From: Bdellovibrio sp.
GTDB taxonomy: Bacteria > Bdellovibrionota > Bdellovibrionia > Bdellovibrionales > Bdellovibrionaceae
Reading direction: 5' to 3'
Assembly: GCA_046318155.1 (NCBI GenBank)
Contig: JBKCUU010000019.1
Location: forward strand, 1 to 64,000
Length of the DNA stretch: 64,000 bases
A program made the position numbers. The first letter of the stretch is position 1; each line of letters begins with the position of its first letter. This document shows positions 6,001 through 18,000 of this stretch, piece by piece.

Positions 6001-9000
6001 AAAAGCAAGAATGGCACTAAAACTCCAACACGGCCGAAACGGGGCAATGATCCGAACCCTCAACATCGTCATGAATATGCGCAGACTTGAGGTGTGGCAA
6101 AAGATTTTCGGTGATGCAAACGTAATCAATCCGCCAGCCGCGATTACTGATTCGAGCCAGCTCGCGGTAAGACCACCAACTGTAGCGGTCCTTTTCTTCA
6201 GGATGAAAGTGGCGAAAGGTATCAACAAATCCGAGCGCCAGGAAAGAATCAAACCACGCCCGCTCTTCGGGCAAAAAACCGCTCTCTTTTGAAAGTCGAA
6301 CGGGATCATAAACATCCCTCTCTCGGTGAGCGACATTGTAATCACCCACGATGATGATTTTTTTGCCGTTCTTGATTTGCGAAACAAGATGCTTGTTTAA
6401 ATCTTTGAGAAACTGCTGCTTGTAAAGGTGCCTGACATCCCCAGACCCACCATTCGGGAAGTAGATGTTGTACAAATCAAATTCAGATAATGAGGTGATC
6501 ACGATTCGTCCCTCAGAATCATAATCGGTCTGTCCCCACCCGCGGAGCAACTCATTCACTTTTTGATTATAAAACGTCGCAACGCCCGAATAGCCCTTAC
6601 GAACAGCCGAAGACCAAAACGAGTTTTGGTACCCCAACAATCGAGCTCCCTCTTCGACCTGTTCCATGTGCGCTTTCGTTTCCTGAAGACAAAGAAAGTC
6701 GGGGCGCTCGCGTGTGACAAAATCGCTGAGACCTTTCTTGTAACAAGCACGGATTCCATTGACGTTCCACGACACGATTTTCATAGTCCATCCTTCTTGG
6801 CTTATTTTTAGAAGTCAGGCAACAATGTTCTTATGAAAACCCGGCGCCGGCTGCTTGATCATCTCCAAGCAAAGTACCCCGAACTCGATCCTTCGCAGCT
6901 CGAGGCCCTCACGGCCGAGCATCTTGTTTCTGACCACGTCCTGAAACTTCCACGGAGCGTCTGGCATCAAGCGCAAATTTTTATATTGGCATGTCAGGAA
7001 TTGCGACACTCCCCCACTTACCAAAAGGCCTTAGAACCCGAGGCGGCAGCAAGGCAACTCAAGGATCCCGGCAATGAGGCCATCGCCATGTCGTATGACT
7101 TTCACCTGGGACCTGATGCAAATCTAAAGCTGATTGAGATAAACACAAACGCTTCTTTTTTGGCTTTGAGCGATGAGCTGTACGAAAGCCTTCAGATCAA
7201 GAAGCCCAATCCCGAATTTTCGCGTGACGCTTTTCAAGCCTGCATTGAAACCGAACTCGAAAGCTCGATCGGGCTTCGTCAGCCTGCTCGGGCCGCCATC
7301 ATCGATGAGGCGCCGCAAGATCAAAAACTTTTTATCGAGTTTTTGGTTTATCAGCAGTGGTTCAAATCCTGGGGCTGGACGACCGAAATCAAAGACTCGT
7401 CCTCGGATCTTCAAAATTTTCAGTTTGTTTACAATCGCGATACTGATTTTTATCTTGAACAACCACGATTAAACAAATTGCGCGCCCTCTGGCTCGAGAA
7501 AAAACTTTGCTTGTCGCCGCATCCTTACCAGTACTTGCTTCTTGCCGACAAACAACGGCAGGTTGAATGGTTCCGTCCTGGTTTTTTTGAAGACATGGGC
7601 CTTTCTGTCGAAATATGCACGACCCTTCGCCGTCATCTACCTTTTGTGCATGAGCTGAACGCGAGCTCGGCCGAAAACTTATGGGCTCAGAAAAAAAGTA
7701 TTTTTATAAAACCCAAGCGCTCCTTTGGAGCGAAACAAACCTTCCGCGGAGGTTCGGTGTCGCGAAAAATGTTTGATCATCTGATTTCACAAGACTTGAT
7801 TGCACAGGAGTTTGTTCCAGCTCCCGAAATCGTGGTCGACGTGCACGGACAAGCAACCCCGCTTAAGTACGATTTAAGGTTCTATACTTACAAAGGCGAA
7901 ATTCAAACAGCCGTCGCACGCTTGTACCAGGGGCAGGTGACAAATCTGCGGACTCCCGGCGGAGGCTTTGCTCCGATTATGTTCGAAGATTCTCAGAAAT
8001 CATAAGCAGACGCTGGCGCATTTCGTCGAGACGCTGAGGCTTTTCAAAATAGCCAACGGCACCCAGATCAAGCGCTCGGCGCTCGCTCATGTTGGTGTGG
8101 GCTGACAGAAAAACCAAAGGAATCTCAACCCGCCGGTTTTGCAACTCTTGGAGAAATTGTAGGCCGTTCATTTTGGGCATATCGACATCCGAAACGATCA
8201 GGTCAAATGACCTGCTTTCAAGTATCTTGAGGGCTTCGAGTGCATGACTTGCCGTGACGACGGCCTGGCCTTCGTCCTCAAAGTAATCGCGAAGAACTTC
8301 GAGAAACTCCAGGTCATCATCCACGAATAAAATTTGAATTCGATGGTCTTGCATTTGAAACCTCTTTTACAGGTTCTCAAACAACGTCGATCTTAAGCAA
8401 TTGTTAACCTAAACATAACTGAAAACAGGATCAAGACCAAGCTCGACTAAAATAAGTTGAGGCTCGACCTTAGCCTAGAAAAAATAAATATAAATCTGTT
8501 TAAATTAGAACGACGCACTGAGATCGAGATGGGTTCGCAAGTATTCGGTTCCTGTTGTCGATTCATTTAAACGGCAAACCATCTGCGTGAGCTTCAGCGA
8601 AATCCCCTGCGCAAGCCTGTAACGGCCCGACAGAACAACCCCCGAAACATCCGTGCGTCCATCACCAAAGCTTGACTGAGTAAAGATCGCAGGAACGGCA
8701 TCGGACTCAACAAAACCCCATGCCAAGGTCGAGTCCCAAACTTTTTGCCCCACAGAGGCTGAAATCCACCACGCTTTATTCGGATCCTTGGTCTCACTAT
8801 TCACCAAATGTTCAATAGCGAGCCCTGAATTCCAAGACCCCCAGTTTTTATCAAACTCGGCAAAGACCTGGCGAGGGACATAGTTATTTTTGACCACTCC
8901 TGCCGGACTTTCAGAATTGCCACGGGCGGAAGCACCCGACGCGAGATCGCTAAATTTCATTCCTTGAAGTGCCGTGTAATTAAAGAAACCTGCACCCACA

Positions 9001-15000: not shown

Positions 15001-18000
15001 GATTTCAACTGTGCTTCTAAGGGGAAACATACCTGAAATCACGTTGGCTTTTCGTTGGGATTCTGTTTGGATTCGAAGCAAAGCTTCTAGACGTGCTGTG
15101 ACTAACCAGGGGAGCAAAGAAAAATGAGAATCAAACTCTAGAAAGTACACCCATCAATGCCCCTGGTCAGAAGGAGGCAATAAAATCGAGCTGCGACGAG
15201 CGAAAATCGCGCTCGGTCGAATTGACACCGCGCTTGGCTTGGTACTGATTGTAACCCACCTGCGAGTTGTCACTCAGTTGATAAGACAAGGACAGACGCG
15301 TTCCCTTGTTATCGGTTCCTCCGCCATTCGTGTCACTGTCCGTGAACGCGCCGACGACGCTGTCCGTTTGCTTTTCAACCATCGCAAATCCCAGGCTTGT
15401 GCGCCCCCACTTGAGGTTCAGTCCCAGCTCGGTTGCTGTGTTCTGATCACTGATCTCTGTGTTCTTAACCATTTCGTAAAATGCCGTGGCTTCGCTAGAT
15501 CCAAATTTGTGCTTCCACTCGACACCAAGAGAACTCAGAACATATTTGTTTTGAAAGTAGTATTTGCGTTGATCGGGGGGAAGCAGGGGATCGTTTGGGT
15601 AAACCGTGTTTCCACGGTAGCGGTCAAGTGGATACGAGTAAGCATCGACTTTGCCGTCTTTCTCGAGAACATTGATCTGCTTATCTTGAATGTTGAGGTA
15701 ATAATAACTTCCCACTCGGCCTGTGATTGTTCCGACAGGTGTCTTGTGCGAGTAGCCGACTTCAAACCCCGCTAGGCCCGTATCAACGACATCGTCAGGA
15801 GCCGCGTAATTTTCAGAAATCATAAACGCGCCCGAATTCACAAACGCCGACGAGGAACTCCATTTTGGCTCCCATTTGAAAGCCAGTCCCTCAAATGCCA
15901 AATCACCGTCAAAAAGAGTTTGCGCTTTGGCTGGTGACCAAAAGGGATTTGCGGCGCGGCCCAACCACAATCGGCCGCCTTTCATGAAATTCCAGTCAAT
16001 AAAGGCCAAATCTAAACCAAAAGACCGGCGGGCCATGCCGGGGTCTTTTGAATCTCCCAAGGTCTGATTCGTGCTGATCGACGAGGTTCCTGTCGCCAGT
16101 CGAAGGTGGACCTGAGTCTCTGGATTCACATCGGCTCGAAGGCCCAGGCGGACGCGGAGCTGCTGGAAATTTCGATCTTGGTCGACATTTTCTTGGGACC
16201 TTGCAAGCCGGTATCGCAAATCCCCGCCCCACTCGAGTTTTTTGGTCCATTCCGAGAGGTCGACCGTGTTTTGCGAGTAGGCATTGAAAGAGAAGAACGC
16301 TGTGATAAAAAAGAAGGCACAAAGAGTGAGTCTGTTCATGCCCTTGGTTTGGTTCGGACCCCTAGAAAGGTCAAGATTCTAACGAGAATCCAAACTGATT
16401 TCTGACAGAACTATCGCCAGAACTATCGACAGAACTATCGACGGGCCTACCGAAGGACATCGTAAACAACACGGACGGAGTACGTCGTGCCGTCAACAAC
16501 CTGCTCCCAGATCAATTCGTAAGAGTCCATGGCGGAGGGGCGCCAGATGCCGCGCCGTGCAATTCGGCGGACTTCTTCGATGGGCGCGAGACGAGCTCTT
16601 TGGCTCCAAACGCCTACTTTTTTGGTGGTACTTAGAGCCTGAATCTGCCAGATCGAATCGCCCCATTTCTTTTCGGGCGAGAGATCGATCAAAGTGGGCA
16701 CCCAGGTCGAAAGATTCATCGACCCCTCGTAAGGTGCTTTCGAACACCGCACTTCACTTTTCATGTTTTTAAAACTGTGTTTCAAAAAGAGCTTTAAACC
16801 CTTTTCTTTGTGCGCGACCCAAACCTCCGCTTCTCTGGCGACCAGGACCTGGTTGGGTAACCTGGAAAAGTCGAAAGACTCGTAAGCTTTTGCCTGAAAG
16901 TAGGTTGGTGGCTGCGAACATAGGGGCACTTTCGCGGCTGCGTTTTCGACAACCAAGAGCAAAATCAAAATAGACAGCAGCCCGTATCGCAAATGTCTCA
17001 TGGTTCCCCTTTTGTGTGCACGACTAGCCTAGACTCGACTTCAGTCTCATCGGCATGGACCACAGAAACTGGACACTCATTTAGTCCAGTTTTCGGCTCG
17101 TCTCATTCAAGGACAGGACCGGACACCCGATGAGTAACGTGTTTGACACTTTTTTAAGGATTGAGAACTAATGAGTGCACGCAAGATCAAAAAGACCGCC
17201 GCAAGTGCATCAAACGTTTACAGCGCCTTTGATCAGATTGATGGCGACCATCCTTGGATGACCGCTCTCCCGGATGGCTTTGTGCCCTACCGAGTCCGAG
17301 AATTGCGCCAAGGCGAAATTGCTTACTTTAATTACCCCCTCGCAAAAGAAATGGGTCTCATCTCTCCCGATCACCCTCACGCGATGACCGGACCGTTAAA
17401 GAAAAAACTCCTCGAAACTTTTAGCCTTCAGATTATCAACGAGTTCGACGAAATGAGCGGAAAACATTTCGATCCCGAAACGATTAAGCCTAAAAAATAT
17501 ATGGCTTCCCGATACCTTCAGCTTCAGCACAGCAATAAAAAAGGCAAAACGAGCGGTGATGGCCGCGGCATCTGGAATGGCATCGCCACAAATCGTGGCA
17601 AGACTTGGGATGTCTCCTCACGCGGAACTGGAGTCACTTGCTTGGCTCCCGGCGCAGTCGCCGCGGGCAAACCCTTACAAACGGGCGGAACCCAATTTGG
17701 CTATGGCTGCGGCAAAGCCGAAATTGATGAGCTTTACGGCGCGGCCCTTTTGGCTGAAATGATGCACCTGCAAGGCTTACAAACCGAGCGCGTTCTTTGC
17801 CTCATCGACCTGGGTAAAGGTTACGGAATCGGTGTTCGTGCGGCCCTGAACCTGATCCGCCCGGCTCACCTGTTTTTGTACCTTAAACAAAATCGCGTCA
17901 AAGAACTGAAAGCTTCGATCGATTATTTTATCGACCGCCAGATTCGAAACGGCCGATGGAAACCCAAATCAAGAGGACCCAGCGTCTACGACGAACTCGC

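Follow-up and report, generated by a model that had tools for sequence, protein, structure and literature searches.

A Bdellovibrio haem-porin operon with phosphate-type promoter repeats and a possible role in phosphorus acquisition

What is the function of an outer-membrane porin that carries its own haem in a predatory bacterium? The question is raised by an operon on contig JBKCUU010000019.1 of a Bdellovibrio species, the first 64,000 nt of which (the window) were analysed. A genome-wide survey's note had interpreted this operon as a Cyc2/Cyc1-like fused porin-cytochrome conduit for Fe(II) oxidation or for electron exchange with the prey periplasm. Re-examination of the ORFs and of their Pfam matches bore out its gene content, coordinates and haem motifs, and likewise the absence of a Pfam family for the haem-porin g00419. 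The operon consists of six ORFs, all on the minus strand:

15167..16339, minus strand, Porin_5 outer-membrane porin, first gene (PF16930, E 6.5e-34)
14127..14972, minus strand, PstS-like phosphate-binding protein (PF12849, PBP_like_2, E 5.7e-26)
11417..14044, minus strand, four-haem c-type cytochrome lipoprotein, 875 aa (CxxCH at 80, 382, 470 and 691)
10761..11420, minus strand, dihaem cytochrome c lipoprotein (PF07635, 33.3 bits, over the cut-off)
9625..10764, minus strand, haem-porin g00419, 379 aa (CxxCH at 30-34)
8505..9617, minus strand, Porin_5 outer-membrane porin, last gene (PF16930, E 5.9e-29)

The three haem genes overlap by 4 bases each, and the two Porin_5 proteins are 29% identical to each other. 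A second haem-porin/dihaem pair on contig C35 (g00855/g00856) is real, as the survey had reported; the two haem-porins are 28% identical over 372 columns. Scans for sigma-70 promoters and terminators gave results at chance level only.

A model of g00419 built with 150 sequences (pLDDT 96.6) has exactly 16 strands, at the lower end of the 16-18 proposed earlier. Its haem head (residues 1-80), which had been thought to be of low confidence, is modelled at pLDDT 91-98. The protein begins with a signal peptide, judged by eye, followed by a head with a single CxxCH and an OprP-like barrel; the best structural match is OprP (2o4v; Z 24.7, rmsd 2.6, 285 aligned). Read from strand alternation rather than from coordinates, the barrel lumen carries charges of both signs and shows no clear acidic pocket and no arginine ladder. 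We found no solved structure related to g00419 by sequence. Among 45 family members the commonest Pfam match was Porin_O_P (11 of 45), and DUF5777 barrels, considered as relatives, gave no match at E≤0.5. On the basis of the model, we confidently describe g00419 as a one-haem plug inside a 16-strand OprP-like barrel.

The known proteins closest to this description are the fused cytochrome-porins called Cyc2, which include Acidithiobacillus Cyc2, Mariprofundus Cyc2PV-1 and Ghiorsea Cyc2TAG1_1 (10.1101/228056, PMC13692758), and for which Keffer et al. reported OprP as the template. Cyc2 and g00419 share a signal peptide, one N-terminal CxxCH and a 16-strand OprO/OprP-like barrel, and g00419 falls within the Cyc2 length rule of at least 365 residues. 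Counted from the first Cys, both families carry Ala at -12 and Pro at -10, and both have L-x-x-[YF]-G after the haem site; a looser head signature common to the two occurs in 199 of 241 haem-porin sequences and at none of 152 control CxxCH sites. For a closer comparison, 120 Cyc2-motif loci were reduced to 58 whole one-haem ORFs, 53 of which entered three alignments. The Cyc2 motif AxPxFAR[Q/K][T/Y] before CxxCH was present in 0 of 241 and 0 of 20 haem-porin sequences, only its A, P and R holding register. The PxL motif after CxxCH was equally absent from both sets, whereas 51 of the 53 Cyc2-motif proteins possess it. Where Cyc2 has these motifs, the haem-porins have Gly-Gly. Further differences from Cyc2 are a shorter mature protein (median 352 residues versus 400-437), an invariant Met109, an invariant His184 and, near the C-terminus, a nearly invariant His376.

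Head profiles of the haem-porin family scored 27-38 against Cyc2 in hhalign, compared with 83-111 among the Cyc2 sets and 33 for an unrelated dihaem CxxCH control. Barrel profiles gave no signal against Cyc2 (probability below 3%), a comparison in which two of three Cyc2-Cyc2 pairs were equally without signal. The gene partners also differ, being PSCyt1-type lipoproteins, YceI, PstS-like and Porin_5 proteins in the one case and rusticyanin or oxidase genes in the other (for the rus operon, see PMC13741234). The g00419 head is probably homologous to that of Cyc2, and we consider it very likely that the haem-porins are a sister family of Cyc2 rather than members of it. The earlier comparison with Cyc2 is supported as regards a Cyc2-like architecture, a probably homologous head and the pairing with a dihaem cytochrome, and is not supported as regards membership. 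The Cyc2 motif was not found in viral contigs, and the word Bdellovibrio does not appear in the main text of the Cyc2 surveys and reviews examined.

MtrCAB-type conduits are built as a 26-strand barrel around a ten-haem wire (Keffer et al.). The window operon resembles MtrCAB, MtoAB and PioAB in that porin and cytochromes are encoded together and electrons are proposed to pass across the outer membrane. Unlike those systems, its haem-porin has one haem and 16 strands, and would therefore be reachable by small soluble partners only. The largest number of CxxCH motifs in any genome ORF of at least 100 aa is five, short of the ten-haem cytochrome of MtrCAB or MtoAB.

The dihaem lipoprotein is composed of two PSCyt1-type domains, each with CxxCH and then Met-Pro in columns that are invariant in 41 sequences, and both haems are predicted to be His/Met ligated. 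In the four-haem protein (model pLDDT 88.9), haem 1 is PSCyt1-like, haems 2 and 3 are SO2930-like and haem 4 is class I-like. All four CxxCH are invariant, as are Met-Pro after haems 1 and 3 and Met after haem 4. The middle of the protein matches the SO2930-family dihaem cytochromes (TIGR03806, E 2.4e-26), which are also its Atlas neighbours. However, the score is 92.6 bits against a cut-off of 313.3, and the protein differs from that family in having two extra haem domains and other gene neighbours. Our literature search found no functional study of SO2930-family cytochromes. Haem 2 has no invariant Met nearby, and the beta domain that ends in its CxxCH (residues about 190-380) contains invariant Lys, Arg, Tyr, Glu and His. 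The top Foldseek rows for this domain are cytochrome P460/c′-beta (E 0.18-0.4); the structural alignments (Z 5.7-5.8, 118-128 aligned, rmsd about 4) lie below the tool's reliable level, and a search for P460 kinship by sequence found nothing. For the whole model of 848 residues, Foldseek gave nothing at E≤0.001 and VIA nothing at Z≥8, which is not proof of a new fold.

The haem-porin family is far more widespread than the survey's estimate, according to which half of the relatives lack it. Profile searches found it in 84 of 89 Bdellovibrionaceae genomes and 147 of 201 genomes of the class (E≤1e-5), and in 168 of 251 genomes of the phylum (E≤1e-10). It comprises 2467 clusters at 50% identity at E≤0.001, or 714 at E≤1e-30, and the nearest Atlas clusters are commonest in Myxococcota. 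Usually the gene adjoins those for YceI and a PSCyt1-type cytochrome. YceI, a quinone binder that carries the label lipid/polyisoprenoid-binding, is the commonest neighbour: 64 of the 80 named loci have it no more than 3 kb away. Both YceI and the promoter repeats described below are additions to the survey's picture. Most members reside in short cassettes that lack these repeats; the basic function of the family is therefore not phosphate-specific. In B. bacteriovorus HD100 the member is Bd2525, from a subfamily distant from that of the window's operon. Paper searches on Bd2523-Bd2533 turned up no more than a mention of Bd2524.

A rarer form of the cassette, which we call the long operon, is present in 15 of 201 genomes. 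In the mapped loci, from nine genera, the order is PstS-like, four-haem, (YceI), dihaem, haem-porin, Porin_5. The last Porin_5 gene follows the haem-porin wherever the contig reaches that far, and the first is missing from some of the related operons. PstS-like and four-haem genes lie near each other in all mapped loci. In a quick-search tree the haem-porins of long operons group as one clade (21 rows, support 100), to which the PstS-like and four-haem genes are confined; judged from sequence, the long operon is a single lineage. The survey had itself raised the PstS-like and porin neighbours as a possible sign of another role, and both are indeed fixed parts of the operon.

The PstS-like protein exceeds the cut-off of PF12849 and scores 130 bits against TIGR02136, under the cut-off of 206.6. 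Its best PDB matches are phosphate-binding proteins (4pqj and 4omb, E 1e-19), with which its conserved blocks align. No pstCAB adjoins its gene; a canonical pstSCAB, including pstC, is on contig C27. Modules of porin and PstS are known in the Pho regulon, as for OprP/OprO with PstS in Pseudomonas, and the Pho box is known from E. coli. In the window operon, too, genes for a porin and a PstS-like protein are preceded by direct repeats with an 11-bp period, which pstS shares; the operon differs from the Pseudomonas modules in its three haem c proteins and in lacking pstCAB. A role in loading iron for the PhoX phosphatase was considered and rejected, as PhoX is absent from the window's genome and, of the 15 genomes that have the four-haem gene, occurs in only 3.

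The repeats in question are located upstream of two genes of the operon:

15043..15070, minus strand, three Pho-box-like half-sites of 11-bp period, upstream of the PstS-like gene
16379..16408, minus strand, degenerate Pho-box-like half-sites of about 11-bp period, upstream of the first Porin_5 gene
16407..16442, minus strand, a 12-bp unit repeated three times head to tail, next to the promoter repeats on their upstream side

The copy number of the 12-bp unit varies in the population, 24 bases being absent from a contig of run X2. A matrix learnt from 11 long-operon promoters scored at least 12 bits in 23 of 29 canonical pstS promoters, in none of 29 coding controls, in 1 of 53 short cassettes and in 5 of 381 random upstream regions. 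Conversely, a matrix trained on 28 pstS promoters only reached at least 10 bits in 18 of the 21 promoters of long operons and in 2 of the 53 short cassettes. The same word is thus learnt from either promoter set, and it separates long from short cassettes both ways. With the long-operon matrix, trained without the window's genome, the site at 15043..15070 reaches 17.5 bits, the fourth best in the genome; with the independent pstS matrix it reaches 9.5 bits (rank 59 of 2437 genes). The corresponding values for 16379..16408 are 14.5 bits and only 7.5 bits (rank 175 of 2437). The top genome site of the pstS matrix lies between genes for FGase and cobalamin adenosyltransferase, with no phosphate gene beside it. 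Under the pstS matrix the window's own copy of the repeats is weak. Taken across the long-operon family, these patterns make Pho control likely. The literature searched contained no link between outer-membrane cytochromes and phosphate-type control.

Freshwater or lake metagenomes make up the runs in which more than one-fifth of the operon's words occur (eight runs from six studies, the possible source left out), and no RNA run is among the listed runs that hold such words. Contigs from four runs match pieces of the operon, mostly at 99% identity or more, none covering all of it. Lakes are often phosphate-limited.

Sequence and modelling establish the gene content and order, the haem plug and its barrel, the single clade and the repeats shared with pstS promoters, and together these point to cell-surface redox chemistry in the service of phosphorus acquisition rather than of iron-based energy. 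We propose that phosphate shortage would cause a PhoB-like regulator to switch the operon on. The haem-porin and the two cytochrome lipoproteins may then pass electrons along a short chain at the outer membrane, and a relay among the three is fairly likely. The step of which we are least sure is that electrons would leave the quinol pool and move outward, via YceI where present; the absence of YceI from this operon and from 7 of the 18 named long operons makes the tie to the quinone pool less secure. On reaching the plug haem, soluble complexes of the Fe(III)-phosphate or Fe(III)-humic-phosphate type might be reduced by these electrons, and freed phosphate would enter by the Porin_5 channels and pass via the PstS-like protein to PstCAB. 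Haems with His/Met ligation usually have high potentials; they would therefore fit only soluble Fe(III) complexes, and would fit inward flow equally. Outward reduction of Fe(III) is a doubtful part of the proposal. The reading as a whole, a phosphate-starvation envelope operon around a haem-porin that relays electrons across the outer membrane and perhaps frees phosphate from soluble Fe(III) complexes, is offered tentatively.

The same genes admit other readings. The phosphate connection would be retained if an open haem of the four-haem protein oxidized a reduced or organic phosphorus compound (phosphite, for instance), with the phosphate taken by the PstS-like protein and electrons passed inward to oxidases by the other haems. 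In favour of such an enzyme, conservation is higher in the four-haem protein than in the porin (48% mean column identity in 110 sequences versus 25% in 150, sets that differ in breadth), and haem 2, with no invariant Met and a weakly P460/c′-beta-like domain of invariant residues, could provide the site. The subthreshold fold match without sequence support, a binding protein that is PstS-like rather than of phosphite type and the unexplained role of the haem-porin nevertheless make this unlikely. It is somewhat less unlikely that the genes form a general envelope redox or oxidative-stress module without direct phosphorus chemistry, one copy of which came under phosphate control because starvation brings stress. 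The near-universal family, its repeat-free short cassettes and the detection of Bd2525, Bd2527 and Bd2528 proteins through the HD100 predatory cycle, with Bd2525 flat over 11 time points, agree with such a module. It does not account for PstS-like and four-haem genes confined to the long-operon clade, nor for the HD100 porin and YceI-cytochrome genes, which are on opposite strands and transcribed at different stages. The repeats, in turn, could be the target of a different OmpR-family regulator, or their effect could be confined to the porin and PstS-like genes, with the cytochrome genes as passengers. A period of 11 bp is usual in the OmpR family, the genome encodes eight full-length OmpR-type regulators among which PhoB is not distinguishable, and the window scores are weak. 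Against this, the two promoter sets yield one word that tells the cassettes apart in both directions, PstS-like and four-haem genes stay close, and the haem genes overlap; we regard this explanation, too, as having little probability.

The two functions originally suggested for the operon fare worse. A Cyc2/Cyc1-like Fe(II) oxidase feeding respiration would suit the Cyc2 architecture and barrel type, the shared head signature and the dihaem partner, and the genome has an alternative complex III-like locus as well as genes for terminal oxidases. Both Cyc2 motifs are nevertheless absent, the family is near-universal in heterotrophic predators, and even the function of Cluster 3 Cyc2 is called uncertain by Keffer et al. 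Positive evidence for Fe(II) oxidation is lacking, and because the promoter repeats are of phosphate type this role fits badly: its Fe(III) product would presumably bind phosphate when it is scarce. We judge it highly improbable. Electron exchange with the prey periplasm during predation likewise lacks positive evidence and is the most improbable reading of all. The family is common in predatory lineages, its nearest Atlas clusters are commonest in Myxococcota, and the level of Bd2525 mRNA is higher during growth phase (RPKM 61.6 versus 2.8, column order inferred). However, Bd2525, albeit from a distant subfamily, showed no change (1.04- and 1.01-fold) 30 min after entry into prey and rose 3.4-fold in prey-free growth, with its protein level flat.

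The haem-porins constitute a large family without a name that is standard equipment of the Bdellovibrionaceae, and that resembles Cyc2 yet should not serve as a marker of iron oxidation. Because an expressed member, Bd2525, exists in the model predator HD100, the function of the family is directly testable. The long operon connects outer-membrane cytochromes with phosphate-type control. It may represent a haem route to phosphorus under phosphate starvation, through reduction of iron complexes at the outer membrane or oxidation of reduced phosphorus at an open P460-like haem, taken up by a repurposed clade of this Cyc2 sister family; we regard this as possible but less likely than not. If the iron reading is true, the operon would provide a genetic handle on the access of aerobic lake bacteria to iron-bound phosphate.

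Sequence, Pfam assignments and CxxCH positions confirmed the genome-wide survey's description of six minus-strand genes with haem motifs and 4-base overlaps, which lie among the following features.

6833-8005: ATP-grasp-like protein
7977-8354: receiver-only response regulator
8505-16339, minus strand: the long operon, with genes for a Porin_5 protein, a PstS-like protein, four-haem and dihaem cytochromes, the haem-porin g00419 and a second Porin_5 protein
16407-16442: three copies of a 12-bp unit, next to the promoter repeats
17171-19012: SelO-like protein
19090-22077: secreted protein of 995 aa, with no family

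None of the four flanking protein genes accompanies the operon consistently. Copy number of the 12-bp unit varies, as a contig of another sample is missing two of the three units; the repeat is absent at the matching place in the fetched locus L194. The second haem-porin/dihaem pair of this genome, on contig C35, was also verified, and its porin is 28% identical to g00419. Haem attachment is plausible because a cytochrome c assembly gene is found in the genome. Directly behind cytochrome c assembly genes on contig C86 (L336, G000:C86:23120-26864, G000 being this same genome) lie genes for a five-haem cytochrome and then a 1050-aa molybdopterin-oxidoreductase/4Fe-4S protein, a pair that resembles ActA/ActB of alternative complex III.

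The AlphaFold2 model of g00419, built from 150 aligned homologues (pLDDT 96.6, pTM 0.91), has 16 strands and a small helical head. OprP is the closest structure, with 285 residues aligned at Z 24.7 and rmsd 2.6; other 16-strand porins reach Z 21-22.5. Porin_O_P is matched weakly by 11 of 45 family members. Across 95 haem-porin sequences from three subgroups, M109 and H184 are invariant (95/95) and H376 is conserved at 88-100%; one of these residues may be the sixth haem ligand. Conserved charges in the lumen are mixed. The dihaem lipoprotein comprises two CxxCH...Met-Pro domains. In the four-haem lipoprotein (model pLDDT 88.9), candidate Met ligands are present for haems 1, 3 and 4, and haem 2 lies at the end of a beta domain in which many charged and aromatic residues are invariant. 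The weak structural likeness of this domain to P460 and c'-beta is without sequence support, and we take the modelled domain as a lead for a catalytic site and nothing beyond that.

Haem-porins are widespread. Profile searches recovered them in 84/89 genomes of the taxonomic family, in 147/201 of the class (where a few matches, with E values of 1e-5 to 1e-11, may be plain porins) and in 168/251 of the phylum. At 50% identity the protein family divides into 2467 clusters. Its nearest neighbours in the Atlas are clusters without a name, most often from Myxococcota. Most members reside in a short cassette that carries neither the PstS-like nor the four-haem gene. Of 40 fetched loci, 31 have a YceI gene next to that of the haem-porin. 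Among 80 named loci, some on contigs that end early, 64 encode YceI no more than 3 kb away, and 63 have a PSCyt1-type cytochrome gene inside the same distance. In the Bdellovibrio genome itself, YceI is at neither haem-porin locus and is encoded elsewhere. One short YceI (L193:1390-1890, G000:C61) resembles those adjoining a second haem-porin subfamily; the genome, which is 95% complete, yielded no member of that subfamily. Elsewhere (L052-L069), that subfamily adjoins a small 8-strand-type outer-membrane protein and is near DUF1501- and DUF1585-like gene clusters and further one-haem proteins.

Other genes were observed near short cassettes. Cytochrome b562-like genes recur at L036, L047, L049, L219 and L229, and a RoxA-like dihaem gene is located at L036 and L047. 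A divergent gene for a TPR and winged-helix regulator, upstream of the cassette in 13 of 80 named loci, is a candidate for the short cassettes' own control. At L245, a gene downstream of the haem-porin and convergent on the cassette encodes a protein of 560 aa in which CxxCH occurs 21 times. L218 places a cassette on a contig of 4 kb that bears the label candidate division WWE3; such a host is unexpected, and the contig may be misbinned.

The long operon is much rarer. Its four-haem gene occurs in 15/201 genomes of the class and 14/89 of the family, in nine genera, with homologues also under the labels Silvanigrellaceae and Bacteriovoracia; the metagenomes that contain operon DNA are from freshwater. 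Complete genomes with the long operon include those of Bdellovibrio sp. HCB-110 and HCB-162. Gene order is constant in all mapped loci (PstS-like, four-haem, YceI when present, dihaem, haem-porin, Porin_5), with YceI included in 11 of 18 named loci. In a quick tree of 92 rows, a branch with support 100 separates the 21 long-operon haem-porins from the rest. A shortened version (L197:4290-8154) still has the haem-porin and the two porins, together with two strong boxes; its four-haem gene is down to 121 aa, and PstS-like and dihaem genes were not seen there.

Upstream of long operons are direct repeats with an 11-bp period. A matrix derived from 11 relatives reached 193 bits, compared with 104-118 for shuffles, and among all sites of the genome it put the promoter of the window's PstS-like gene in 4th place and that of canonical pstS in 7th; it gave no site at the C35 pair. 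In other genomes, which are related and so not independent, this matrix scored at least 12 bits at 23/29 pstS promoters, 0/29 coding controls, 1/53 short cassettes and 5/381 random upstream regions. The reverse matrix, trained on 28 pstS promoters, reached at least 10 bits at 18/21 long operons and 2/53 short cassettes. We call the repeats Pho boxes because of their location at pstS and the usual layout of such boxes, and we infer that the long operon is under phosphate control. Two observations count against this reading: with the pstS-trained matrix the window's own sites score only 9.5 bits, 59th in rank out of 2437, and 7.5 bits, and the genome's strongest site has no evident phosphate link. 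That top site (L334, G000:C86:33963) is flanked by two divergent genes, one for N-formylglutamate amidohydrolase and the other for cobalamin adenosyltransferase. A 991-aa protein with no Pfam family (L333:868-3840, G000:C51) is encoded behind a 16.7-bit Pho-box-like site.

The survey's note had proposed Cyc2/Cyc1-like conduits. In the definition of Keffer et al. (10.1101/228056), Cyc2 has AxPxFAR[Q/K][T/Y] before CxxCH and PxL after it; further Cyc2 facts came from PMC13692758, PMC10654088, PMC12442345 and PMC13741234. For comparison, at least 120 metagenome loci with the Cyc2 motif yielded 58 whole ORFs, of which 53 were aligned in three groups; their match to the upstream motif is true by construction, as the loci were picked by it. 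Both motifs are absent from the haem-porins (0/241) and from the second subfamily (0/20). A proline at -10 with a downstream L-x-x-[YFLM]-G is found in 199/241 haem-porins and 50/53 Cyc2-motif proteins, compared with 0/152 control CxxCH sites. Head profiles of haem-porins against Cyc2 groups scored 27-38, with 33 for the dihaem control and 83-111 between Cyc2 groups. Barrel profiles showed no similarity, but two of three Cyc2-Cyc2 barrel pairs were equally silent, so this comparison carries no information. From these sequence comparisons, we read the haem-porins as a sister family of Cyc2 with a common head design, and not as Cyc2 members.

A distant haem-porin subfamily (profile probability 100%, 21% identity) includes Q6MK85, or Bd2525, of B. 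bacteriovorus HD100, and data on this protein bear on the haem-porin family, not on the window's clade. PMC12546842 lists 15 unique peptides, abundances of 5.06-5.44 across 11 time points and a log2 change of 0.14 at 30 min (FDR 0.37). Transcript values in PMC2797640 are 1.04- and 1.01-fold at prey entry, compared with 3.4-fold when growth is free of prey. PMC3627812 gives RPKM of 2.8 versus 61.6 (attack/growth by inferred column order), and the opposite trend for YceI Bd2527 and cytochrome Bd2528, which have a common FliA promoter. Bd2525 is therefore made, is not invasion-specific and is not co-regulated with its HD100 neighbours.

A literature search, with most subscription papers outside its coverage, returned no description of the haem-porin family or the long operon. 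In the chain that we propose, electrons would pass between the porin haem and the lipoproteins. The function that we favour is an outward electron flow that reduces soluble complexes of Fe(III) and phosphate, with direction and substrate both guesses; close rivals are an enzyme that oxidises reduced phosphorus and a general part in redox stress. The survey's note suggested Fe(II) oxidation or electron exchange with the prey periplasm. We prefer outward reduction because it would bring the porins, the PstS-like protein and the operon's control under one explanation, and because Fe(II) oxidation would trap phosphate. The operon may serve as a phosphate-starvation electron relay at the outer membrane.
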